Origin: Nitrosopumilaceae archaeon
GTDB taxonomy: Archaea > Thermoproteota > Nitrososphaeria > Nitrososphaerales > Nitrosopumilaceae
Direction of reading: 5' to 3'
Assembly (NCBI GenBank): GCA_052389415.1
Contig: JBQTHX010000068.1
Coordinates: 1-28,497, forward strand
DNA length: 28,497 nucleotides
A program made the position numbers and the translations under genes. Under the pieces are notes generated by a model that was not told the origin of the DNA, made no database searches, and worked only from the letters and a program-made list of their open reading frames with translations. Below are positions 727-28,347 of this stretch, in pieces; position 1 is the first letter of the stretch; each line of letters opens with the position of its first letter.

Positions 727-1173
727 TTAACTTTTTTCATTTTTTAGAAAATCTAGAGAATTTTTAATTGAGTTTTTTACTTCTTCTAACAAATCTTTGA
801 GTATGTTTTCATTGTTTGTTGCCATTTTTTGTTGAAGTTCAGTATTGTAATATTTTAACCACGAATATGTATGGTGCAAATTTTCTATCATTTCGAAAGG
901 AAGTAAAGTCTGCTTGCCTGACAATATTACCGCGTCCCATATATCAGTAAAAAATGGTTTATAATCTTTGTATTGAATTGATTCATGGATAAATCGTAAC
1001 TTTCTTTCGAGATCATCGTTAATCAATACTAGTATTTTTTGTTTCATTCCTTTCTCTTCATTTTTTTGTATTCTTCTATAATTCCAATGCTCAACGTATA
1101 CCGCACCAAAAATTATTCCAGCTAATATCGACATTTCAATAATTAATTGCACCCACTCAATAACCAAAATCAA
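727..1173 (-). CDS. Hypothetical membrane-anchored protein
   Basis: 148-aa ORF with an N-terminal hydrophobic helix; a GGTGA SD-like motif suggests the true start may be the TTG at 1167. Confidence 0.7.
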   Translation of the reverse strand: MILVIEWVQLIIEMSILAGIIFGAVYVEHWNYRRIQKNEEKGMKQKILVLINDDLERKLRFIHESIQYKDYKPFFTDIWDAVILSGKQTLLPFEMIENLHHTYSWLKYYNTELQQKMATNNENILKDLLEEVKNSIKNSLDFLKNEKS

Positions 1174-1223: not shown

Positions 1224-1580
1224 TCATTTTAATCGATTGTAAATAGATTTGAATTCTTCTGCTATGGTATATGCTAGGTTTTGTAACTTTGTAACTTCTA
1301 TCATGTTTGTTTTCCCCATAGCAATTTGTCTCATCTGTGTCATACATTTGTGCACTGTATTATGATCTGAGGGGGCAGTCTTGTCAGACCATGCCTTAAA
1401 ACAATCATTAAAATCAAGACAAAAATTCAGAATTATCGTTTCCCAATCTTTTGTATTACTTGGATATCCCATGCCATGAGCAAGTTCTCGAAATTCATTA
1501 CTTCGATCAATTAAGAGCATTTTTAGGGATTTTGCAGCAATTACAGTATCATAATTATCAAGTGGAGAGGATCCTTGCAT
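1224..1580 (-). CDS. Hypothetical protein
   Basis: 118-aa ATG ORF with a TATA-like element ~25-30 nt upstream and an island operator at 1622-1639. Confidence 0.7.
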   Translation of the reverse strand: MQGSSPLDNYDTVIAAKSLKMLLIDRSNEFRELAHGMGYPSNTKDWETIILNFCLDFNDCFKAWSDKTAPSDHNTVHKCMTQMRQIAMGKTNMIEVTKLQNLAYTIAEEFKSIYNRLK

Positions 1581-2607: not shown

Positions 2608-2943
2608 TCACCCTGTTGCATTGGGAACTATCTCAATATCCAATGAACCTCCATTAAAGTAGGCAACTATGGATTTTACTTTACTCTTGTACAAAAAATA
2701 TTTTTTACCATCTTCATTAATTGAGCCTGAGATTCCAAGGAGCTTATTATCGTGTAATTCCTGCACTCTTCTATATGCAGTGCTGATTGGGATTTTACAT
2801 TCTGCGCTCAGTTCAATTGCTGATTTTGGAAAATCCAGTGTTGCCTCAAGAATGGCACGAGAGTATTTGTCAGCTAATATTCTTAGCATGACATCTTTCG
2901 TAACTTCTTCTTGAACCTGTTTTCCCTGTTGAAGTACTTGCAT
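2608..2943 (-). CDS. Winged helix-turn-helix transcriptional regulator (ArsR-like)
   Basis: LADKYSRAILEAT...KSAIELSAECKIPISTAYRRVQEL HTH plus wing; paralogous to 28018-28347. Confidence 0.85.
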   Translation of the reverse strand: MQVLQQGKQVQEEVTKDVMLRILADKYSRAILEATLDFPKSAIELSAECKIPISTAYRRVQELHDNKLLGISGSINEDGKKYFLYKSKVKSIVAYFNGGSLDIEIVPNATG

Positions 2944-3008: not shown

Positions 3009-3488
3009 CTAATGAACAATCATTACAGGGCAAGTAGCTAATTCAGTAACTTTACGGCTGACACTTCCAAGGGTGACAATCTTGGCTAATCCATGTCTGC
3101 CTTGGCTTCCCATAACAATTAGGTCAATTTTACGACCACGCATGAATTTCAGAATCGATTCCACGGGATGCCCTGATATGATGTCATAAAATGTTTTAGA
3201 TATTCCTCTTGCTTTGCAGATCCCCACTTCTGCTAAAAGGTCTTTTCTTACTTGCGATTTTACCGCAGAAATGTATTCGTTTATTGATTCTTCAAGGATC
3301 TTGTCTTTTTTTAGTAAGGCTAGTAGCATACCTGGAGGAAAATCAGATGTATCGACTGCAGCAATTATGTAAATTTCTGAATCAAATTTTTTGGCGATAC
3401 TAATTGCTTGACTGATAGCATTTCGAGAATACCGTGAACCATCAAATGGAACAAGAATTCTTTTAAAAATCCCGTTTGTCATAAACAA
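3009..3488 (-). CDS. Universal stress protein (UspA family)
   Basis: FKRILVPFDGS, DLIVMGSQG, LGSVSRKV and CPVMIVH motifs; start is probably the ATG at 3482. Confidence 0.93.
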   Translation of the reverse strand: MFMTNGIFKRILVPFDGSRYSRNAISQAISIAKKFDSEIYIIAAVDTSDFPPGMLLALLKKDKILEESINEYISAVKSQVRKDLLAEVGICKARGISKTFYDIISGHPVESILKFMRGRKIDLIVMGSQGRHGLAKIVTLGSVSRKVTELATCPVMIVH

Positions 3489-4829: not shown

Positions 4830-5258
4830 TCACTTTACTATCAAAACAGGTACCTTGGATTTATGAAGAACACTATTTGAAACACTTCCCAAAAATACTT
4901 CTTTTACTGATCCTAATCCTCTAGCTCCTATGACAATAAGATCAAAGTTTTTCTCTGCAGCATAGCCTACAATCTCTTCTGATTCATGACCATCTGTTAT
5001 TTTCTCATTAAATACAATTCCATTTTGTGCGCATCGAACTTTAGCTTCCTCCATTATTTCCTTTCCTCTCTTTCGGAGCTCTTTTTCATAGGATATGGGT
5101 GTCAACAGCAAAGATTTGGGATAAAAAGGCACTACGTTAATCCCAGTTAATGTGGCTCCACATTGTCTTGCTAGGTAAACTGCATAGTCTAGACCTCGAA
5201 ATGAATTTTTTGAACCATCAAGAGGTACAAGAATCCTTCTTATCGCTGGCAATTTCAT
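4830..5258 (-). CDS. Universal stress protein (UspA family)
   Basis: RRILVPLDGS, DLIVIGARG, LGSVSNSVL and PVLIVK motifs. Confidence 0.94.
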   Translation of the reverse strand: MKLPAIRRILVPLDGSKNSFRGLDYAVYLARQCGATLTGINVVPFYPKSLLLTPISYEKELRKRGKEIMEEAKVRCAQNGIVFNEKITDGHESEEIVGYAAEKNFDLIVIGARGLGSVKEVFLGSVSNSVLHKSKVPVLIVK

Positions 5259-5298
5259 AGATTAGATTATTTCCATGCCAATTTAATAATGTATTTAG

Positions 5299-5316
5299 AA
5301 TATCAATATTGATAAT
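5299..5316. promoter_or_regulatory. Island operator AATATCA-ATAT-TGATAAT (for the Usp-MDH operon)
   Basis: Near-perfect palindrome, 9-10 bp upstream of minus-strand TTATTAAA (5289-5282). Confidence 0.75.
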
Positions 5317-5363
5317 AAAGAATTGATTTATCAAATTATTATGATTCATTTCGGATGATTGTC

Positions 5364-5394
5364 TTTATCACTCACGATTATCAATATTAGGAAT
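5364..5394. promoter_or_regulatory. Tandem island operators TTTATCA-CTCA-CGATTAT / ATTATCA-ATAT-TAGGAAT (for the CBS-HPF gene)
   Basis: 13-bp offset pair ending 10 bp before TTTTTATT (5405-5412). Confidence 0.7.
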
Positions 5395-5488
5395 CAATCG
5401 CTCTTTTTTATTATTCATTAATTGTATTTCTTGTGTAATAAGCCATGGAGCAACTGTTAATTATGCTGAATTCGATGGAGTTTTTGGA

Positions 5489-6658
5489 ATGAGTTCGCCC
5501 CAAACCACACATGAATATTTGAAAGACATTCGCAATACAAATGTTACAAGAGTAATGCGTGCTGCAACAATGGTGGAACCCTCGTATTCACTCTCAAAAG
5601 TAATTGGTATGATGTCTGAAACTGATTCTTTTGATGTATACTGTATAGATGATGGGAAGGTATTGACAACAAATGGACGAGAGATTCTGAGTGCCAAAAA
5701 CATCGCGTCTGTGAAAATTTCTTCCTTGTTACACAGAATAAAACCGCTGTCAAAAACAGACACAATAGAAAAAGCTGCTACTGCAATGTCTCACTATAGA
5801 ATGCGTTCATTTCCTGTGATGGACGGTAAGAAAATCATGAGCGTCGTGACAGCAAAAAATATAGTCAATCTCTTGTCAAGACAAAATCTGAATTGGATTA
5901 GGGCAAATTCTGTCCTAACTGCAAATCCTATAGTTCTAAGCAACGTCGAATCACTTGCAAAAGCTAGAAAAACCATGATGACAAAGAGAATAGATCACAT
6001 ACCAATATTTCACAAAGGCAAAATTGGTCAAGTTTTAACTTCAATGCATTTGCTCCGATTGATTACTCCTCCTGAGAGGATAGGAAGTGATCAAAAAGGA
6101 GTTAATCCTAAAAGCCGATTTGAATCAGATATAGGAAACATAGGTAGCCCACGAATTCCACTATGTAGTACCAATGATACAATAAACACAGTTATAGATG
6201 CCATGCTAAAATCAGATACAACGTGTTGTCTTCTTACTCTGTGGGAAAATATCCACGGCATAATTACTTACAGGGACATACTAGATCTAATTTCTACAAA
6301 GATTTCAAGTACAGTTCCACTTTACATCATTGGAATGCCTGATGACACTGAGAACGCCGAAATCGTTAAAACAAAATTTCAAAAAATAATCAGTAATTTA
6401 ACTAAAGTTTATCCTGAAGTTGAAGAAGCAAAAACATCAATAAAAACAATACACAATCCAACAAGTCAAAGAAAACACTTTGAGGTTTCAGTTAGAATAG
6501 TTACTCCGTACAAAAATTATAATTATATTGAATCCGGATGGGATCTTTCCAAAGCATTTGATGCATTAGGAAAACGCATTATGAAAAATCTTTCAAACCG
6601 AAGTAAAAAACGTTGGAAGACATCATTACGAAAAGTATCAAAGAGAGAAATTTTTTAA
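5489..6658 (+). CDS. CBS-domain protein with C-terminal HPF/RaiA-like domain (candidate archaeal ribosome hibernation factor, Hib-like)
   Basis: Four degenerate CBS repeats (last GIITYRD), then ~110 aa with a beta-alpha-beta-beta-beta-alpha pattern ending ESGWDLSKAFDAL and a basic tail. Confidence 0.75.
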   Translation: MSSPQTTHEYLKDIRNTNVTRVMRAATMVEPSYSLSKVIGMMSETDSFDVYCIDDGKVLTTNGREILSAKNIASVKISSLLHRIKPLSKTDTIEKAATAMSHYRMRSFPVMDGKKIMSVVTAKNIVNLLSRQNLNWIRANSVLTANPIVLSNVESLAKARKTMMTKRIDHIPIFHKGKIGQVLTSMHLLRLITPPERIGSDQKGVNPKSRFESDIGNIGSPRIPLCSTNDTINTVIDAMLKSDTTCCLLTLWENIHGIITYRDILDLISTKISSTVPLYIIGMPDDTENAEIVKTKFQKIISNLTKVYPEVEEAKTSIKTIHNPTSQRKHFEVSVRIVTPYKNYNYIESGWDLSKAFDALGKRIMKNLSNRSKKRWKTSLRKVSKREIF

Positions 6659-8307
6659 TTACATTCCCATTTCAGGCATATGTGGCTGTCCACCTGGAGG
6701 AGAAGAAGGTTTCGATGAAGCCACGACATTGTCTATTCTAAGTATCATGTTGGCAGTTTCAGTTGCAGATTTGATCACTTGTTCTTTTACCTTGATTGGT
6801 TCTACAATGTCAGATTTTTGAATGTCTCCAACAACTCCATTGATGGAATCAATTCCAGCCCATTTTTCTCCAGCGCTATGTTTAGAACGAAGTTGGGTTA
6901 TTGCATCTATTGGATTCATACCTGCATTTCTTGCAAGCGCCAGAGGAATTGATTCTAAGGCCTCCGCAAATTTTTCTACCGCTAATTGCTCTCTTCCTGA
7001 CAACGATTGTGCCCAACTTCGCAATTTTGTTGCTACGTATCCTTCTGGTGCTCCTCCTCCATACACTATAAGGGTTTTTCTATTACATCCTTTACAACCA
7101 TTAATGCGTCATGAATCGACCTTTCTGCCTCATCAATTACTCTTTGCGATCCTCCTCTGAGTAGTAAACTCACAGCTTTTGGATTTTTACACCCTTCGAC
7201 AAAAACCCAGTTATCATTTTCTATAGGTCTTTCTTCTACAGTTTGAGCATCGCCAAGGTCTTTTTCTGTCAGATCATTTACGCTTCCGACTATCCTTCCA
7301 CCTGTTGCTTTTGCAAGTTTTGACATATCGCTTTCTTTAATTCGTCTTACTGCAATTATCCCAGCTTTAGCTAGATGGTGTTGGGCTATGTCATCAATGC
7401 CTTTCTGGCAAAGAACTACATTTGCATTGATCGATTTTATTTTGTCTACCATTCCTTTTAGTATGCTATCTTCCTCTGCCATGAAAGTACGTATTTGATC
7501 AGGTGTGTTTATGTTAATCTTGGCATCAAATTCCGTTTTTTCAATTTCTAACGGAGCACTAATCAATGCGATTTTTGCATTTTGTATTTTTTTTGGCATG
7601 CCGCTGTGAACAATTTCCTTATCCAAGACAATTCCATTTATCAGTCTGCTATCTGCAATTGATGCTCCTGCCTTCTTTTCTACCTTGATATTGTTTAGAT
7701 CAACTGCAAAAGTATCATCTCTAGGTGTTACTACAGAAAGCACTGCGTCAACTGCTATCTTTGCCAAATCTTCTGCCCCTACAGAAACCAATTTTGTTAC
7801 TAATGAAGTAACTGCAATTTTTTCAAGTATTTTTCTATCTTTTGGCTCGACTTTTTGCGCAATTTCTGATAGAAGAGACATGGCCTTAATTGCAGCTTTC
7901 TGATATCCATTTGCTATAATTACAGGATGAATATCATTTTCTACTAGTCCTTCTGCTTTTTCGAGGAGAGCACCTGCCATTACTACAGCTGAAGTGGTTC
8001 CATCACCTACCTCACTATCTGTGGCTTTGGCAACCTCTACCATCATTTTTGCTGCAGGATGCTGAACGTCAATCTCTTTTAGAATAGTTGCACCATCATT
8101 GGTAATTGTAATATCTCCAATAGAGTCAACAAGCATTTTATCCATTCCTCTTGGTCCAAGACTAGTACTGATTATTTCTGCAATTAGTTTGGCTGCTGCA
8201 ATGTTATTACGTTGAGCTTCTCTTCCTCGTGACTGCCTAGACCCCTCCTTTAACACTATTACTGGAATACCTTCCGTAGTTGTCTGAACCGATGACATGC
8301 TGTTCAC
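6659..8307 (-). pseudogene. ths: Thermosome (group II chaperonin) subunit, split by a 1-bp frameshift near 7070
   Basis: [18 protein letters not shown] and GDGTT motifs in 7066-8307 continue as (I)VYGGGAPE...ILRID in another frame; likely start is the ATG at 8298. Confidence 0.9.
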
Positions 8308-8410: not shown

Positions 8411-9166
8411 ATGATTTCACAATCTGATGATTCTAATTTAAAAAAACTAGAAAAAATGCCAAAATCACCATCAATATTATTCGTAGGTATTCCTGGACCA
8501 GGTCTGATTGGAATTCTTTCGTTAAATTACATAATACATTCACTTGAGATGGATATTATTGGAGAAATAGGACACTCTGATTTATCAAATATTATTTTTG
8601 TTGACAATGGCGAACTTTATGGTCCTGTAAGAATTTACAAAAAAAATAACATTCATGTTGTGATATCCGATGTTCCAATAGATTATGTAATAGCTGAAGA
8701 TTTTGCGGATTCACTCATTAAATTTTCAAAGAAGAGCAAGATAGACATGATTGTGTTATTAAGTGGCATACATGCAGTTGAGAGGAATCTGACTAATCTA
8801 AAGACATATGGTCTTGTAACTGACTACAAATTAGATCAAGTCTTATATGAAAATGAGATTCCAAAGTTTCTTTCTGGTATGATTGCAGGACCTGATGCAA
8901 CAATCCTTACTAAACTAAAAAACTCACCAATTTCAACAATTGTTCTTTATACTGAATGTAATTTCTTCTTTCCCGATCCAGAAGCTTCAATTCATAGCAT
9001 AAGTACGATATCACGAATAATAAAAAAAGAGATCGATGTTACTGAATTTAAAAAACAGATTGATTTCTTGCGATTGCAAAGCAGACAGCTTATGGAAGAT
9101 ACCTTGACAATTTTGAATCCAGAGAAAACTAAACCTGCTGTTTCAGCTCCCCAAATTTATAAGTGA
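8411..9166 (+). CDS. PAC2-family proteasome assembly chaperone (PbaA/PbaB-like)
   Basis: GIPGPGLIG, PVRIY and PDPEAS motifs; C-terminal IYK resembles an HbYX motif. Confidence 0.85.
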   Translation: MISQSDDSNLKKLEKMPKSPSILFVGIPGPGLIGILSLNYIIHSLEMDIIGEIGHSDLSNIIFVDNGELYGPVRIYKKNNIHVVISDVPIDYVIAEDFADSLIKFSKKSKIDMIVLLSGIHAVERNLTNLKTYGLVTDYKLDQVLYENEIPKFLSGMIAGPDATILTKLKNSPISTIVLYTECNFFFPDPEASIHSISTISRIIKKEIDVTEFKKQIDFLRLQSRQLMEDTLTILNPEKTKPAVSAPQIYK

Positions 9167-9172
9167 GAAAAT

Positions 9173-9562
9173 ATGTCAAACCAATCTTTTACATCATTTG
9201 AAAAGTTTTTCACCTCTTTAATAACCAGAGATATGGATGATTATACGAACAAGGAACTTGCTCCATTGTCTTATTTGACAGAAAAAGATTCTAAATGGAT
9301 TTTAGAAATAGATCTTCCCTTCGTCAACAAAAAAGACATAGAAATCACTATTGCTGATAACCAATTAATTGTCACAGCAAAGTTAGAAAAAACTTACTGT
9401 GTTTCAAAACGTGATTGCATAATTGAATTCAATTATTTTAGAAAAGCTACTTTGCTGCCTATGGGAATAGATAAAGAAAAAATTTCTGCAAAATTCAACA
9501 ACGGGATTCTGAGCGTAAATATGCCTAAAATTTCAGTCGGTATAAATATCAAAATCGATTAA
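9173..9562 (+). CDS. Hsp20/alpha-crystallin small heat-shock protein
   Basis: LEIDLPFVNKKDIEI...AKFNNGILSVNMPK and a terminal IKI motif. Confidence 0.9.
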   Translation: MSNQSFTSFEKFFTSLITRDMDDYTNKELAPLSYLTEKDSKWILEIDLPFVNKKDIEITIADNQLIVTAKLEKTYCVSKRDCIIEFNYFRKATLLPMGIDKEKISAKFNNGILSVNMPKISVGINIKID

Positions 9563-9564
9563 TT

Positions 9565-10563
9565 TTGTCTTCAAAAATTACTAATTCAAAAAATGCTTCT
9601 GGAATAGCTGGTCTGAAAAGCTCTAGAAAATTTCTTGCAGTTACAAGAGATGAAACAGTTAGTAATGTTAAGAACCTAATAATGGATAAAATAAAAGATT
9701 TAGATATTATAGACGATGTTTATGTTGTAGATAAAAACAATACGCTTGAAGGAGCAGTTTCATTGAGAAATCTTTTGCAAAATCCAAATGAAGTAAAGTT
9801 AGGGGAAATAATGAAAACAAAAGTAGCTTCTGTAAAATATCATAGTCATCAAGAAAGAGTGATTCATCTTGCATTAAAAAATGAATTGAAAGCAGTTCCT
9901 GTCGTAGATAAGGAAAATCATCTTTTAGGTGTTATACCACACGATGTCATATTGGATATCTTTCATCATGAATTTCGCGAAGACATTCTTAGTTTAGGAG
10001 GCATTCATCATAAAGTGAAGGAAATAGAAGAAATTACGACGCCTGTTTCACGGCTCATAAAAGCAAGACTGCCATCATTAATCATCGGTCTATTGGGTGG
10101 TCTTGTAGCTGCTTATATTGTAGGAGGATTCGAGGAAGTTCTAAGATCATATCTTATCTTAGCTGCATTCATGCCAGTCATGATTTACTTGAGTGATGCT
10201 GTTGGCACCCAATCTCAAACTCTCATTGTTAGGATGATTTCAAGAGAGCCTAAATTTTCTTTGAAGCACTATATGGCGCGTGAACTAAAGATAGGAGCAA
10301 GTCTTGGTTCTATTTTTGCAATATTGCTTTTCACTGCAACGTTCCTGGGATGGGGACCTGCATCACTGGGAGCAATCATTGGAATATCCATCTTTGTGAG
10401 CATGTTGACTCAGACCTTTATTGCAACATATCTATCGATGATATTAACAAAAGTTCACATAGATCCTGCTGTTACATCCGGACCTATTGCAACTATTATC
10501 AGCGATATTACCACTGTAATAACATATTTTAGTATAGCAGCCTTGCTCTTAGAGAATTTTTAA
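9565..10563 (+). CDS. mgtE: MgtE-family magnesium transporter (CBS pair + 5 TM; lacks the N-terminal superhelical domain)
   Basis: ARLPSLII, AAFMPVMI..SDAVGTQS and DPAVTSGPIATIISD signatures. Confidence 0.88.
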   Translation: MSSKITNSKNASGIAGLKSSRKFLAVTRDETVSNVKNLIMDKIKDLDIIDDVYVVDKNNTLEGAVSLRNLLQNPNEVKLGEIMKTKVASVKYHSHQERVIHLALKNELKAVPVVDKENHLLGVIPHDVILDIFHHEFREDILSLGGIHHKVKEIEEITTPVSRLIKARLPSLIIGLLGGLVAAYIVGGFEEVLRSYLILAAFMPVMIYLSDAVGTQSQTLIVRMISREPKFSLKHYMARELKIGASLGSIFAILLFTATFLGWGPASLGAIIGISIFVSMLTQTFIATYLSMILTKVHIDPAVTSGPIATIISDITTVITYFSIAALLLENF

Positions 10564-10578
10564 CTTATCTTCAACAAA

Positions 10579-11028
10579 TTAATGAACTATAGTTACAGGA
10601 CACGTGGCATGTTCAGAAACATATCTTGCAGTACTTCCAAGTCTTTTAAGTGCAGCAAGACCCTTCATGCGTCTACTGCCCATAACAATGAGATTTATTC
10701 TGTTTTTCTTTGCATATTTTAAAATGGTGTATGAAACATCACCTTCAAGCACTTTGTAGTATGCTTTCACTCCTTCTTGTCTACACTTTTCTGTAACTAT
10801 TTTGATTTCCTTTTCTCCTTTTGTTTTTAATTCTTTGATAATCTTACTATAATCTCCCATTGTGGCACCAGAGTAAATTGATGGTTCACTCATTGGATAA
10901 AACATGGGTATTATCATTAATAATTCCAAATTTGCGTTAAAATTACGTGCAATTTCTTTTCCTAAATCTAATGCTTTCTTCGAAAGTGGTGAACCTTCGT
11001 ATGGAACTAGTATATTTTTTATTATCAT
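10579..11028 (-). CDS. Universal stress protein (UspA family)
   Basis: KNILVPYEGS, NLIVMGSR, LGSTARYV and CPVTIVH motifs. Confidence 0.93.
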   Translation of the reverse strand: MIIKNILVPYEGSPLSKKALDLGKEIARNFNANLELLMIIPMFYPMSEPSIYSGATMGDYSKIIKELKTKGEKEIKIVTEKCRQEGVKAYYKVLEGDVSYTILKYAKKNRINLIVMGSRRMKGLAALKRLGSTARYVSEHATCPVTIVH

Positions 11029-11649: not shown

Positions 11650-12099
11650 ATGACAACTGCTAAAGATATCATGAGCAAGAAAGTAGTTTCGGTAGAACCA
11701 ACAGTTTCCGTAAACGAAATTGCAAAACTAATGGACAGAAATAACGTAAGTTGTGTAGTCTTAATGCAAAATGAGGAACCTTATGGCATCATAACGGAGA
11801 GAGATCTACTATCAAAAGTTACTGCTCTTAATAAGAGATCCTCCGAAATTAGAGCAGAGGAGATCATGTCATATCCAGTTGCTCTGGTGTCTTCTTTTAC
11901 CCCATCAGATGAGATTGTACAAAAAATGTTAGAAAAGAGAATTAGAAGGGTGGTTGTAGTGGATGGCCACCAACCTGTAGGAATAATCACAGTTACTGAT
12001 TTTATAAAACACCTAAACTCCATTGTCGAAGACTATGATAATTACAAAAAAGATCTTTATCAGAGCCTTATTGATGAATATGATCATTGGAAAGGCTAG
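11650..12099 (+). CDS. CBS-domain protein (single CBS pair)
   Basis: AKDIMSK, GIITERD and GIITVTD motifs. Confidence 0.92.
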   Translation: MTTAKDIMSKKVVSVEPTVSVNEIAKLMDRNNVSCVVLMQNEEPYGIITERDLLSKVTALNKRSSEIRAEEIMSYPVALVSSFTPSDEIVQKMLEKRIRRVVVVDGHQPVGIITVTDFIKHLNSIVEDYDNYKKDLYQSLIDEYDHWKG

Positions 12100-12125: not shown

Positions 12126-12980
12126 TTAAGATGCAATAGCTTTCACGATATTTGTCTTTGTGATAATTCCTACAAGTAACGAGTTCTTTACCACTGGCAA
12201 GCCACTAATTCCATGTCGAATCATAAGTAATGCTACGTTTGATACATCATCCGTAGATTCAACCACCACTGGGTTTGAAGTCATAATGTCAGCAGCTATG
12301 AAATTAAGAAGATAGCTTAGTTGATTTGCTTTGTATTCATAAGGTGTGGAGCTTAGGGCAAATTCCTCAACATCTTTTGGGTCTGAGAATTGTTTTATCC
12401 ATAAAGGCATTTTTGCAGGAATAAAATCACGGTGAGTAATGATTCCTACTGGCCTTCTCTTTCTTTCTACAACCACTCTTGAGATCTTATTATTTATCAA
12501 AACACTTTCAACAAATAATAAGGAATCAGCAGGTTTTACAGTAATTACTTTTCTTGTCATGATTCTGGATACTTGAAGTGGAGTAGACGATTGAGTAAGA
12601 AAGACAGAAGCAAGATCGGTTTTTGTTATTATTCCTGCTAATGTGCCATCTTTTTTTAGTACAATTATTGAGCTTATCTTATGAGACAACATTAGTTTAG
12701 CACAATCATGAATGGTATCTTTTTCAGTAATAGTAACAAGATCTCTTGACATGAACTCGTTGACTCGTATTGCTTCAAGCGGCTTCCCTGCAAGATAATA
12801 AATTGCTCGGACAAGATCCTTCTCAGTTATTATTCCCACTGGCTTTTCGCCTCTAGATACTATTAATCGACTAATTTTATGCCTCAAAAGTATGGATCTA
12901 GCTTCTAAAAGCGGAGTATCTGGTGAAACCACAATAGTTCTTTTAATGACCTGACCAAGACCGACATTTCCTAGGTGCAT
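12126..12980 (-). CDS. CBS-domain protein (4 CBS repeats)
   Basis: GIITEKD, GIITKTD, GIITHRD and GIITKTN motifs. Confidence 0.92.
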   Translation of the reverse strand: MHLGNVGLGQVIKRTIVVSPDTPLLEARSILLRHKISRLIVSRGEKPVGIITEKDLVRAIYYLAGKPLEAIRVNEFMSRDLVTITEKDTIHDCAKLMLSHKISSIIVLKKDGTLAGIITKTDLASVFLTQSSTPLQVSRIMTRKVITVKPADSLLFVESVLINNKISRVVVERKRRPVGIITHRDFIPAKMPLWIKQFSDPKDVEEFALSSTPYEYKANQLSYLLNFIAADIMTSNPVVVESTDDVSNVALLMIRHGISGLPVVKNSLLVGIITKTNIVKAIAS

Positions 12981-13094: not shown

Positions 13095-13640
13095 ATGGCA
13101 TTAAATCTACTTAATGAATCAATAACAAAATTTACAACCCATAAGATGACCGCCGTTGCAAGCAATCTAACCATAAGTGATACAGCAAGAGTCATGGTAG
13201 ATTCCAATGTAGACAGTGTTCTTGTCTTTGAACATGGTCAAATAATAGGCATCGTAACAGAAAAGGACATTTTCCAAGATATAGTTGCAAAAGATTTGGA
13301 CCCAAAAAAAATTACTGTAAAAAAAATAGCAAAGAAACCGCTAATCACAATAAGAAAAGACGCAACAGTAAGAGAAGCAATTGACCTGATGGAAAAACAC
13401 AACATACGCAGACTGGTTGTGATGGATAAACGGCCAATAGGATTAATTACACAGAAAATGGTTTGTGGAAATCTAGGTGAAGACTCATTTACATTGCCAG
13501 AATTAGTGTCAGAAAAGATACTCTGTCCTTATTGTTCATCACAATTTGAGAATAAGAAGATCCTCTCAAAGCATATAGATGACATACACATTGGTCGTGG
13601 CCTGCTTGAGGGGAATTTAAAACGAACCACGACAGAGTAA
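13095..13640 (+). CDS. CBS pair fused to a C2H2-type zinc finger
   Basis: GIVTEKD and GLITQK motifs; C-terminal CPYC-x12-HIDDIH. Confidence 0.88.
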   Translation: MALNLLNESITKFTTHKMTAVASNLTISDTARVMVDSNVDSVLVFEHGQIIGIVTEKDIFQDIVAKDLDPKKITVKKIAKKPLITIRKDATVREAIDLMEKHNIRRLVVMDKRPIGLITQKMVCGNLGEDSFTLPELVSEKILCPYCSSQFENKKILSKHIDDIHIGRGLLEGNLKRTTTE

Positions 13641-20753: not shown

Positions 20754-21563
20754 TTATCTTTGTACCCTGAATTTGTTGATGTCATAGATGAGATGATCAT
20801 TTGCACCAAATGGAACCGGTTTGTCTCCATCATTTACCAAGAACACATCAGATGCATTCTCTGCAGTCACATGGTAAATGCATGACCCATCTTGTGCTGG
20901 ATTGAATTTTGCAACTCCGTCTAGTGTGACAGAGATATCATATGCTTGAATGTATGATTTACCTGCACCAGTTCCAGGAGTGGTGTCATATGTTGGATCG
21001 TTTGGATCTAAGTTATTTGCTACTTCGTTGGCTTCAAGGTTGTCAAAGTCCAGCTCTGACATTGTCTTTACACCATTAGGGGCAACAAGTGTAAGAGGAA
21101 TGTTGATTACTCTTACCTCAGCAACCTCTTCTGGTTCTGCAACGAATGTTCTGAATCCAAAGTCTTCGTTGGTGTCTGTCAATGCATCTGGATCGTACTC
21201 TAGATGAGCTTCTATCTCTCTTATTTCTGCAAAGTTTACAAGCTTTAGCAATGGTGAGCCATCTTTATTGCAAGGTATCTTCATTGCAAAATGGGCATCT
21301 ACTCCATATGGTGATGTGTCCATAAGGAATATTCCATCACCTGGTTTGAGAATGTGGCCATTCAACCAGATAAATTGTGATGATGGTATTTGCAGTCTCT
21401 GAAATCCAGATGTATCACTATCATCTGTTACCGCTGAAGGCTTTGGAAACTCTGCTGATTCTCCAGGAAATGCAATGGCAATGGTAGTTGCTGAAAGTGC
21501 AAGTATTGTTCCAATTGCTATTGACATCAGGGGTTTTTTGGTTAGTTTTCCAAAACTTAACAT
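20754..21563 (-). CDS. Secreted/surface hypothetical protein with His/Cys motifs
   Basis: N-terminal signal peptide; DTSPY..HFAMKIPC and CIYHV motifs; acidic mature part. Confidence 0.75.
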   Translation of the reverse strand: MLSFGKLTKKPLMSIAIGTILALSATTIAIAFPGESAEFPKPSAVTDDSDTSGFQRLQIPSSQFIWLNGHILKPGDGIFLMDTSPYGVDAHFAMKIPCNKDGSPLLKLVNFAEIREIEAHLEYDPDALTDTNEDFGFRTFVAEPEEVAEVRVINIPLTLVAPNGVKTMSELDFDNLEANEVANNLDPNDPTYDTTPGTGAGKSYIQAYDISVTLDGVAKFNPAQDGSCIYHVTAENASDVFLVNDGDKPVPFGANDHLIYDINKFRVQR

Positions 21564-21985: not shown

Positions 21986-22303
21986 ATGACGCAACAATTA
22001 TCTCAAACAGATCAAAACCAGAAAAACTTGTGGGTGTTAATAAGCACTACAAAGGAGAATACCGATAAAGAAATTCTGGAAAAGATAACTCCATCAGTTA
22101 TTGATCTTGTTGACGAGTGGCAGTCAGGTGGAAGATTTCTCTGGTCAGGACCATTTAATGACAACAAAACCGCGATGGCTGTTTTTGAAGGCACTGAGGA
22201 CGAGGCAAATCAGCTATACCAAAAATATGGCAAGATATGTGGCAATCTTTTAAACTATGATTTATACAAATGGGATGCAATCCCATTGCTGTCCTTATTG
22301 TAG
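21986..22303 (+). CDS. YciI-like / dimeric alpha+beta barrel small protein
   Basis: GRFLWSGPF....AMAVFEG.E.EA pattern. Confidence 0.65.
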   Translation: MTQQLSQTDQNQKNLWVLISTTKENTDKEILEKITPSVIDLVDEWQSGGRFLWSGPFNDNKTAMAVFEGTEDEANQLYQKYGKICGNLLNYDLYKWDAIPLLSLL

Positions 22304-22392: not shown

Positions 22393-23508
22393 TTAGAACT
22401 TTGGTACGAATCTAAACTTTTGATTTTTAATACCTAGAACAATAATTGGAATTATTGCTACTAGAAAGACTAGAGTTGCTAATGGTCCAAACTCTGGAAC
22501 GATAACTGCTACTTGGTCCATTCTTATAAGAATCTCATCAATATGTGAACTTACATCCTCGACTGGGGCACCATTTTTTATCATGTCTCGCAATTCTTCA
22601 CGCATCATGTGTTCTACTTCTTCATTTAATTCAGGATCTTGTGCACCAACTGCTGACTCGAGAAACTCAAAATTGTCAAGATATGCCTTTGTTGCCAAGC
22701 TTAGAGCTTGCTCAGTCTCACCTGCTGCATATTCTTCCTTTGCTTCAGCTAGAAGATTTCTTATATTTTCAACATAATCTGTTAGTTCAGTTACCTCAAT
22801 CTCTTCTCCTGCGACTTCTTGTAGTTCATGAATTATTCCTCCGGCCAATGTTTCTACAGTTTCAGGATCTGCTTTAGAATCATATGCTTCCCACAAGTCT
22901 TCATAAAACTCGGTAATCTCTTCAGCTTCATGCTCTGGAACTTCGGATTCTATTGTTGAATAGATCTCTTGGGATCTCCAAACAAAGGCCGACCCATCTT
23001 GGAACTCTGCCATCTCATTTATCTGACCATTTGCTACGGCCTCTCCATATTCTGCAATGGAGGTTTCAAGCAATCCAATCATTAATTTTATCTTAAAATT
23101 TGTCCTATCATATTCATTACCTACAACTGTTGCAGTAGTGATTTGGAGCAGGTCTCTAGCATCATCAATTGCTTCTTGTGCCTGTTCTCGTGTAACTCCT
23201 GCTGATGTTGTCTTGTCATTAAGTTCTATCAACGCTTGTCTTAACTCTGAATCCAGGTTTGCATCATGTTCTTGTAACTCTGGTGCCATCAGATCATAGA
23301 GTTCTGCAATAGGATGCATTGCATGTATTGATGCTAGCTGTCTATTGTCTTCATCTAGGTTATTTTCAATTGCATGAAAATGTCCCAGCATCTCTTCAAT
23401 ATACCCAGCAAAAACTACTTTTTCATCTTCTGCTGCAAAGGCAGGAATTGTAAATACGGATAATGTGATAATTACAGTCAGTCCTAATAATCCCAGTTTT
23501 TTATTCAT
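22393..23508 (-). CDS. PEFG-CTERM surface protein, acidic, His/Glu-rich helical repeats (putative metal-binding)
   Basis: Signal peptide (..PAFA); C-terminal VPEFG + TM helix + basic tail. Confidence 0.88.
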   Translation of the reverse strand: MNKKLGLLGLTVIITLSVFTIPAFAAEDEKVVFAGYIEEMLGHFHAIENNLDEDNRQLASIHAMHPIAELYDLMAPELQEHDANLDSELRQALIELNDKTTSAGVTREQAQEAIDDARDLLQITTATVVGNEYDRTNFKIKLMIGLLETSIAEYGEAVANGQINEMAEFQDGSAFVWRSQEIYSTIESEVPEHEAEEITEFYEDLWEAYDSKADPETVETLAGGIIHELQEVAGEEIEVTELTDYVENIRNLLAEAKEEYAAGETEQALSLATKAYLDNFEFLESAVGAQDPELNEEVEHMMREELRDMIKNGAPVEDVSSHIDEILIRMDQVAVIVPEFGPLATLVFLVAIIPIIVLGIKNQKFRFVPKF

Positions 23509-28017: not shown

Positions 28018-28347
28018 ATGGCAAAACGACTCTCACTTTCTCAATTAAAAAAGTATGATGTGAATCAAAAGATTCTAGAGGCGTTAGCAGATGCACAGTC
28101 ACGATCAATTCTGTTTTCAGTCATAAAAGAAGGAAAGACTGCGGCAGAGCTAGCAGAAGACCACAGAATCCCTCTAAGTTCGGTATACAAGAAAATTTCT
28201 GATCTTGAAGACCTTTCATTACTCAAAGTAGAACGATGGGTTCTTGCAGATAATGGAAAAAAATTCAAACTGTACAAAAGTAGGATAAGCAAGGCGGATG
28301 TTTCCATAAGAAAACCAGAACCAGTAATTAGTTTATCACCAAATTAA
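28018..28347 (+). CDS. Winged helix-turn-helix transcriptional regulator (ArsR-like)
   Basis: LADAQSRSILFS..KTAAELAEDHRIPLSSVYKKISDL HTH plus wing. Confidence 0.88.
   Translation: MAKRLSLSQLKKYDVNQKILEALADAQSRSILFSVIKEGKTAAELAEDHRIPLSSVYKKISDLEDLSLLKVERWVLADNGKKFKLYKSRISKADVSIRKPEPVISLSPN

Follow-up and report, generated by a model that had tools for sequence, protein, structure and literature searches.

A CBS–HPF fusion protein of Nitrosopumilaceae: a probable orthologue of the archaeal ribosome hibernation factors HibA, AHA and Hib, genomically linked to a SriC-like CBS tetrad

A gene at positions 5489..6658 of contig JBQTHX010000068.1 from a Nitrosopumilaceae archaeon (GenBank assembly GCA_052389415.1; the whole stretch of 28,497 nucleotides that was analysed is called the window below) very probably encodes an archaeal ribosome hibernation factor, orthologous to the protein described as HibA in Pyrococcus and Thermococcus, as AHA in Haloferax, or as Hib. 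The assignment follows from the combination of four CBS motifs, a predicted HPF fold and profile matches that reach both bacterial HPF and HibA. What is demonstrated here is the architecture of the protein, its fold, its homology and its conservation; it is an ordinary member of the known HibA/AHA/Hib family, and the family itself is no discovery. A first-pass annotation, made from the sequence, had proposed a nucleotide-gated hibernation factor in which CBS repeats are fused to an HPF/RaiA-like domain; the coordinates it gave are exact, and the 389-residue open reading frame on the forward strand was confirmed.

The C-terminal 119 residues (271–389), searched alone, matched 129 of 1.84 billion cluster representatives at E <= 1e-3, 70 of them at E <= 1e-10, and the domain is therefore more than a chance likeness. 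These relatives are a mixture of proteins of about 365–410 amino acids, which match at their C-terminus, and stand-alone proteins of about 113–145 amino acids. A model of the domain, folded with an alignment of the domain and 25 stand-alone relatives, reached a mean predicted local distance difference test score (pLDDT) of 83.9 and consists of a strand (278–281), a helix (287–307), three strands (313–322, 329–338 and 343–350) and a final helix (353–383), a predicted β-α-β-β-β-α arrangement of the HPF/RaiA type. When this model was compared with known structures using Foldseek, all 24 of the listed rows at E <= 1e-3 were ribosome hibernation factors (chloroplast pY, HPF of several bacteria, RaiA/YfiA, RafH and MPY), bound to or taken from ribosomes, with a best E-value of 5.4e-6 and template-modelling (TM) scores, relative to the query, of 0.45–0.67. 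The first unrelated fold, a double-stranded RNA (dsRNA)-binding region, appears at rank 35, from where E-values lie between 3e-3 and 1e-2. The PDB copy used by Foldseek ends on 2026-04-08, and neither the 9SR9 series nor 9L96 is among its top 50 matches; the link to HibA is made by profile. The first-pass annotation had read an HPF/RaiA topology into this region, beginning with an LYIIG motif near nucleotide 6320, and had named an AlphaFold model and a Foldseek search as ways of checking it. The motif starts at residue 278, which is nucleotide 6320, and both checks bear the topology out, returning an HPF fold and hibernation-factor matches.

Sequence profiles point in the same direction. A profile of the window domain and the 25 stand-alone relatives, searched against PDB sequences, gave 37 matches at E <= 10, and HPF, RaiA/YfiA or protein Y account for 19 of them; at E <= 0.01, eight of the nine matches belong to the HPF/RaiA/YfiA family, the best of the eight being HPF of Staphylococcus aureus, matched at positions 24–114 with an E-value of 8.6e-6. 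In that alignment, the D-L-Y-A-G-I-D with which the last helix of S. aureus HPF opens is paired with D-L-S-K-A-F-D (352–358) of the window protein, in agreement with the D-L-x-x-A-I/F-D pattern that had been suspected there. The tail (362–389), as basic as the first pass had described it (Table 1), carries a K-K-R-W-K-T-S motif that is nearly invariant across the family. The top PDB match of the profile, a phage Q-beta A1 fusion (E 1.6e-6), was rejected, being a 28-residue match doubled in a tandem fusion, with an independent E-value of 0.14 for each copy. Sub-threshold Pfam and NCBIfam matches of the C-terminal 119 residues to Holin_BhlA (E 0.0026), N_BRCA1_IG and Cas12e (E 0.018) were likewise taken as chance.

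The two modules were connected to a characterised protein by a profile of the fused family, consisting of the window protein, placed first, and 50 fused relatives. This profile aligns with Pyrococcus abyssi HibA (chain 9sr9_H, eight entries) in one stretch, 22–367 on 17–374, at E 1.2e-43, and with the 406-residue chain 9l96_a over residues 8–185 and 204–390 at E 5.5e-43; at the level of profiles, homology to a characterised member of the family thus extends over both modules.

Full-length relatives are numerous. A search of 5.8 billion proteins with the 389-residue sequence, which produced 3107 candidates, returned 509 homologues at E <= 1e-3, and among the 120 of them that were listed nearly all are full length, with 53–83% identity. 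Where the sources name these homologues, the name is 'CBS domain-containing protein' of Nitrosopumilaceae, Nitrosotalea, 'Thaumarchaeota' or Bathyarchaeia, and one record of the Joint Genome Institute carries the additional name 'ribosome-associated translation inhibitor RaiA'; the more distant representatives of fused clusters are labelled as 'CBS domain-containing' or 'HPP family' proteins of Nitrososphaeraceae and Nitrosocosmicus. These names, together with CBS matches alone in Pfam and NCBIfam and the absence of Pfam PF02482 at E <= 10, agree with the earlier remark that a standard annotation would see only a CBS protein. The start methionine is common to all 33 aligned homologues. The gene is present in one copy in the host genome (1.43 Mb in 94 contigs, 94% complete, 2% contamination) and is intact, with no insertions or deletions, in contigs of three public DNA runs (X1–X3) from one study, two of which are possibly the source of the window itself. 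The public runs listed for the gene were four DNA runs of that study, with no RNA run among them.

In the N-terminal part, Pfam scores three CBS stretches (E 2.5e-16), the rest being noise, and NCBIfam gives only weak matches to CBS-containing models, far below their cut-offs. An AlphaFold model of the whole protein, based on a 33-row alignment and with a mean pLDDT of 77, resolves four β-α-β-β-α units between residues ~18 and 270, followed by a linker (272–287), a helix, three strands and a helix. The model superposes on the solved CBS tetrads MJ1225, SSO3205, SriD, SriA, AMPK-gamma and Dri with E-values of 6e-16 to 1e-12 and TM scores, relative to the target, of 0.77–0.79, as expected of four CBS motifs predicted to form one disk. 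The 'four degenerate CBS repeats' of the first-pass annotation are thereby recovered as four structural units, of which Pfam sees three stretches. Residues T184, T260 and D263 of the G-h-h-T-x-x-D-type stretches, which we take to be tied to adenine nucleotide binding, are conserved in 46–50 of 51 fused relatives. A long loop (190–224) connects the helix of CBS3 to CBS4 and is the extended element of the third CBS motif that is typical of the family; it measures 35 residues in 33 of 33 close homologues and 32–44 residues across 51 diverse fused relatives, and six of its positions (P194, G199, G204, N217, G219 and R222) do not vary among the close homologues. The loop is the positional equivalent of the element named 'PTC loop', after the peptidyl-transferase centre (PTC), in HibA (residues 190–207) and 'loop 3' in AHA. 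Sri proteins are CBS tetrads that have no HPF domain; the window protein contains an HPF-like domain and is therefore the fused (Hib) form and not a Sri protein.

That CBS–HPF fusions had been described as archaeal hibernation factors, as the first pass stated, is documented: three groups published the family in 2025–2026. HibA of P. abyssi and Thermococcus barophilus (Madru et al., Nat Commun 2026, PMC13324472; preprint 10.1101/2025.10.11.676729; PDB 9SR9 series) comprises, in P. abyssi, four CBS domains (1–269) and an HPF/RaiA-like domain (270–392). Cryo-electron microscopy of 70S ribosomes places the C-terminal domain in the mRNA/tRNA channel of the 30S subunit and the CBS module in three positions on the 50S subunit, the PTC loop encircling a universally conserved adenine, and knock-out of hibA delays recovery (PMC13324472). 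AHA of Haloferax volcanii (Souza et al., EMBO J 2026, PMC13728122) has the same architecture, binds two molecules of adenosine monophosphate (AMP) at the junction of CBS3 and CBS4, extends its loop 3 into the PTC and has 3160 homologues in 2723 species. Nissley et al. (PMC13004131) named the same fusion Hib and counted it in 2951 species. The supplement of PMC13728122 lists an AHA of Nitrosotalea devanaterra ('extracted_CTD 272-389') whose boundaries and motifs are those of the window protein, as well as an AHA of Nitrosotenuis, stand-alone HPFs of Nitrosopumilus and Nitrosomaritimum and a SriC of Nitrosarchaeum; the family is therefore known and the orthologous group already catalogued. Our literature search combining Nitrosopumilus with ribosome hibernation found no paper.

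From these precedents we infer, by homology, ribosome binding, the target of the loop, nucleotide binding and its effect. The C-terminal domain would occupy the A and P sites in the mRNA/tRNA channel of the small subunit, and its basic tail, to judge from HibA, would extend along the mRNA path. The four-CBS disk would rest on the large subunit, the CBS3 loop presumably being inserted into the PTC. A single polypeptide could in this way clamp an idle 70S ribosome, block translation and shield the particle from degradation when energy is limiting or the cell is under stress. Adenine nucleotides would probably bind at the CBS3/CBS4 interface. The term 'nucleotide-gated' in the first-pass annotation, in contrast, goes too far, since gating is unproven for the characterised members too: the HibA module binds AMP and the adenosine di- and triphosphates (ADP and ATP) with dissociation constants of 12, 65 and 113 µM, respectively, and ribosome binding is not clearly affected (PMC13324472). 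ATP-triggered release has been claimed for the Sri-type ARC complex (ARC-P/ARC-A) of Methanolobus (10.64898/2026.01.19.700304).

Several observations weigh against the assignment to the HibA/AHA/Hib family. A single-sequence phmmer comparison with HibA aligns the CBS part only (residues 30–286, E 9.8e-6), and the C-terminal link for this reason needs profiles or the predicted fold. No match to PF02482 is listed in a scan of the window's C-terminal domain up to an E-value of 10, and none was found anywhere in the host genome at E <= 10; the same model was detected in 12 of 14 control genomes, including those of Haloferax volcanii and Sulfolobus acidocaldarius, and the window protein stays below its curated cut-off of 23.7 bits. 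Six of the 26 members of the C-terminal profile set do match PF02482 (best E 9.6e-6) but the window's own domain is not among them, and we therefore regard it as homologous to the PF02482 family and not as a Pfam member. In the full-length model, the linker 272–287 and the tail have pLDDT values below 50. When sequences are compared, SriD matches the CBS module of the close family better (E 1.2e-17) than HibA does (4.4e-12), the module may belong to the CM-5/SriA-like subfamily or to another, and the position of the ribose-binding aspartate of CBS2 is occupied by asparagine. PMC13324472 counts Nitrosopumilaceae among the lineages with no identifiable factors, and the accessible portions of the HibA, AHA and Hib papers report no experiments on any thaumarchaeal member.

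Two other explanations of the protein can be weighed against these data. That the resemblance to HPF is a chance likeness of a short α/β domain, so that the gene encodes a CBS protein with an unrelated tail, would agree with the failure of the curated Pfam and NCBIfam models to recognise the C-terminal domain; this idea is hardly credible and already contradicted by the 129 relatives of the domain, by the profiles that tie it to bacterial HPF and HibA, and by a confidently predicted fold whose structural matches are specific. Somewhat less improbable, yet still unlikely, is a CBS-domain metabolic or transcriptional regulator, comparable to the CBS-tetrad transcription factor HhpR, in which the HPF-like domain has been re-used for binding another RNA or protein. 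CBS tetrads have many functions (PMC13728122), the weak matches to dsRNA-binding domains lower in the Foldseek ranking would suit such a role, and a function on the ribosome would in this lineage follow from homology. Against a regulator stand the end-to-end match to HibA, the top structural ranks, all of which are hibernation factors, and the conservation of both elements with which HibA and AHA contact the ribosome, the CBS3 loop and the basic tail.

A search with the window's domain as query detected the C-terminal HPF domain in 16 of 27 genera of the Nitrosopumilaceae: 112 of the 201 genomes sampled have it, or 85 of 144 when only high-quality genomes are counted. Six of ten other genomes of the window's own genus are among them; no match was found in the remaining 11 genera. 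The statement of PMC13324472 that the family is lacking factors fits only that part of the Nitrosopumilaceae, and one supplement file of that paper contains no Nitrosopumilaceae entries. In one genus (g14), the matches lie in open frames of 114–134 amino acids and represent stand-alone HPFs, as would be expected if hib had lost its CBS module there, the origin that has been proposed for archaeal stand-alone HPFs (PMC13324472). One such gene (L014:9852-10190, minus strand, ~112 amino acids) still adjoins a type A tetrad, described next, and universal stress protein (USP) genes.

The window also encodes two stand-alone four-CBS proteins, types A and B (Table 1), which are about 30% identical to each other and represent two paralogue groups; the best solved match of both is SriC, over the full length. 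At E <= 1e-40, type A occurs in 97 of 201 genomes, and its 16 genera (of 27) are those that have the HPF domain; it is present in 94 of the 110 genomes in which the HPF domain could be placed, and only three genomes have type A with no HPF. In 85 genomes, type A and hib/HPF share a contig, and none of the 85 shows a gap above 10 kb; in 73 of them the gap does not exceed 1.2 kb, a space too small for more than hib's own CBS module and a spacer between genes, so that the two are directly adjacent. All four adjacent pairs that were inspected are divergent, with spacers of 78–126 nt (genomes G020, G003, G064 and G142, of genera g21, g4, g18 and g14, respectively), the pair in g14 being of the stand-alone HPF form; in the window's genus, the gap is 5.5–7.3 kb. 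The linkage hints at a two-gene module, although these counts overstate the evidence because related genomes are not independent. A complex predicted from the type A tetrad and the HPF domain scored 0.01 against a mark of 0.32, which is evidence neither for nor against an interaction. The type B gene adjoins an HTH_20 (ArsR-type) gene, and a tetrad 47–56% identical to it is likewise paired with HTH_20 near hib in two other genera (L009 and L010).

The linkage raises the tentative idea, to which we give well under an even chance, that the gene is one half of a two-gene system, in which Hib or a stand-alone HPF works with the SriC-like type A protein and the hibernation state needs both, the HPF domain taking the place of SriD beside SriC on the small subunit. 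Co-occurrence in genomes and genera, close and mostly immediate adjacency on shared contigs, the divergent orientation of the inspected pairs, the persistence of the pairing in g14 with a stand-alone HPF of ~112 amino acids and the full-length match of type A to SriC would all suit such a system, and a precedent exists in SriC, which binds the small subunit in tandem with the A-site-occupying SriD (PMC13004131). Linkage alone is, however, no proof of binding, related genomes are not independent samples, and 16 HPF-positive genomes, including the closed genome G010, have no type A at E <= 1e-40. Moreover, the characterised HibA and AHA act with no such partner, and hib and sri, described in the literature as mutually exclusive systems, are reported to be anti-correlated, although a 'SriC-short' clade of Nitrososphaerales was omitted from that count (PMC13004131). 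In its evolutionary form, the proposal would be that a SriC-like 'short' tetrad makes up a conserved, mostly divergent hibernation module together with hib or with the stand-alone HPF derived from it, a hybrid of Hib and Sri with HPF standing in for SriD; we regard this, too, as possible but doubtful. In the window's genus, the pair would then have been split 5.5 kb apart by the block of thermosome, PAC2, Hsp20 and USP genes. The accessible portions of the HibA, AHA and Sri papers contain no statement on a pairing of hib with type A.

The stress-gene neighbourhood of hib is conserved. At seven loci, one from each of seven genera, a stand-alone four-CBS gene lies within 7.5 kb of hib/HPF in all seven, a USP gene within 5 kb in six, and thermosome, PAC2 or Hsp20 genes beside hib in three. 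In the window, a malate/lactate dehydrogenase gene also lies near hib. The first pass had called the hib product 'the effector of the island', which is best read as a figure of speech. In a proteome of Nitrosopumilus maritimus, USP and CBS proteins of shared operons were reported only at the highest growth temperature (PMC12974425). From 14.8 kb on, the window has a housekeeping content, with GatB, an amidase, a class II tRNA synthetase, a DUF1246/DUF1297 protein, a hydantoinase and FTR1.

The thermosome gene of the window is broken into frames of 413 and 135 amino acids by a one-base frameshift in a short homopolymer, while in a genome of the same genus it is intact, with 542 amino acids (L008:4024-5652). 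Contigs of runs X3 and X4 have one extra base behind 7071, which restores the frame, but contigs of runs X1 and X2 (possible sources, depth 11–18) agree with the window; the break is thus due either to variation in the population or to a mistake in the assembly. Open frames of 105–371 amino acids at 727-1173 (-), 1224-1580 (-), 20754-21563 (-), 21986-22303 (+), 22393-23508 (-) and 28018-28347 (+) have no Pfam match at the thresholds used.

Table 1. Features of the window, with the basis of each assignment
Feature	Position	Strand	Basis
Putative hibA/AHA-type gene; ATG start, 389 amino acids, stop included	5489..6658	+	Open reading frame list and translation
N-terminal CBS module, residues 1–270, predicted to form one four-CBS disk	5489..6298	+	Pfam CBS, AlphaFold model, Foldseek
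Long loop after CBS3 helix, residues 190–224, before CBS4	6056..6160	+	Low-pLDDT loop in model; alignments
HPF/RaiA-like core, residues 271–361	6299..6571	+	β-α-β-β-β-α model, Foldseek, profile match to S. aureus HPF
Basic C-terminal tail, residues 362–389, partly continuing the long last helix	6572..6655	+	12 K/R and 1 D/E in 28 residues
Intergenic region, 230 nt, between the gene and the divergent USP gene	5259..5488	.	Sequence read; USP by Pfam
Type A stand-alone four-CBS protein, SriC-like, 284 amino acids, candidate partner	12126..12980	-	SriC chain 9zni_6, full length, E 1.2e-22
Type B stand-alone four-CBS protein, SriC-like, 292 amino acids	1650-2528	-	SriC chain 9zni_6, full length, E 5.3e-17
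HTH_20 gene	2608-2943	-	Pfam
USP gene	3009-3488	-	Pfam
USP gene, divergent from hib	4830-5258	-	Pfam
Thermosome (Cpn60/TCP-1) gene, split	6659-8307	-	Break near 7066-7075
PAC2 gene	8411-9166	+	Pfam
Hsp20 gene	9173-9562	+	Pfam
MgtE-like transporter gene with CBS pair	9565-10563	+	Pfam
USP gene	10579-11028	-	Pfam
CBS-pair gene	11650-12099	+	Pfam
CBS-pair gene	13095-13640	+	Pfam

Naming the gene a HibA/AHA-type hibernation factor improves on the annotation 'CBS domain-containing protein', and the presence of the HPF domain in 112 of the 201 genomes qualifies the published claim that Nitrosopumilaceae lack identifiable factors. The ammonia oxidisers of this archaeal family, which are abundant, subsist on a very low energy supply, so that the way in which they park and protect ribosomes matters for their survival. 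A concrete, testable idea of how the Hib and Sri systems relate comes from the tight linkage to a SriC-like gene, whose product might act jointly with that of hib.

Among the known systems, HibA is close to the window protein in length (392 and 389 amino acids) and in layout, four CBS motifs with a long loop in CBS3 being followed by a β-α-β-β-β-α HPF/RaiA domain and a basic end. The two differ in that their sequences are so distant that a single-sequence search aligns the CBS part alone, in the host, which here is a mesophilic archaeon of the Nitrosopumilaceae type, and in the genomic linkage of the window gene to a SriC-like CBS tetrad. AHA shares the two-module architecture; it has been seen with AMP bound, whereas the window protein is a putative nucleotide binder, and PF02482 is detected in the Haloferax control genome and not in the host genome. 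With bacterial HPF and RaiA (YfiA, protein Y) and plastid pY, the C-terminal domain has in common its predicted fold, profile similarity and the D-L-x-x-x-(I/F)-D stretch with which the last helix begins; the bacterial forms, however, have no CBS module, and the window domain has a longer last helix and tail and stays below the Pfam threshold. The Sri proteins of Methanosarcina acetivorans (SriA–D, PMC13004131), ARC-P/ARC-A and Dri of Pyrobaculum possess a related ribosome-binding CBS-tetrad module and, unlike the window protein, no HPF domain, while the window carries two Sri-like stand-alone tetrads of its own, both of them SriC-like.

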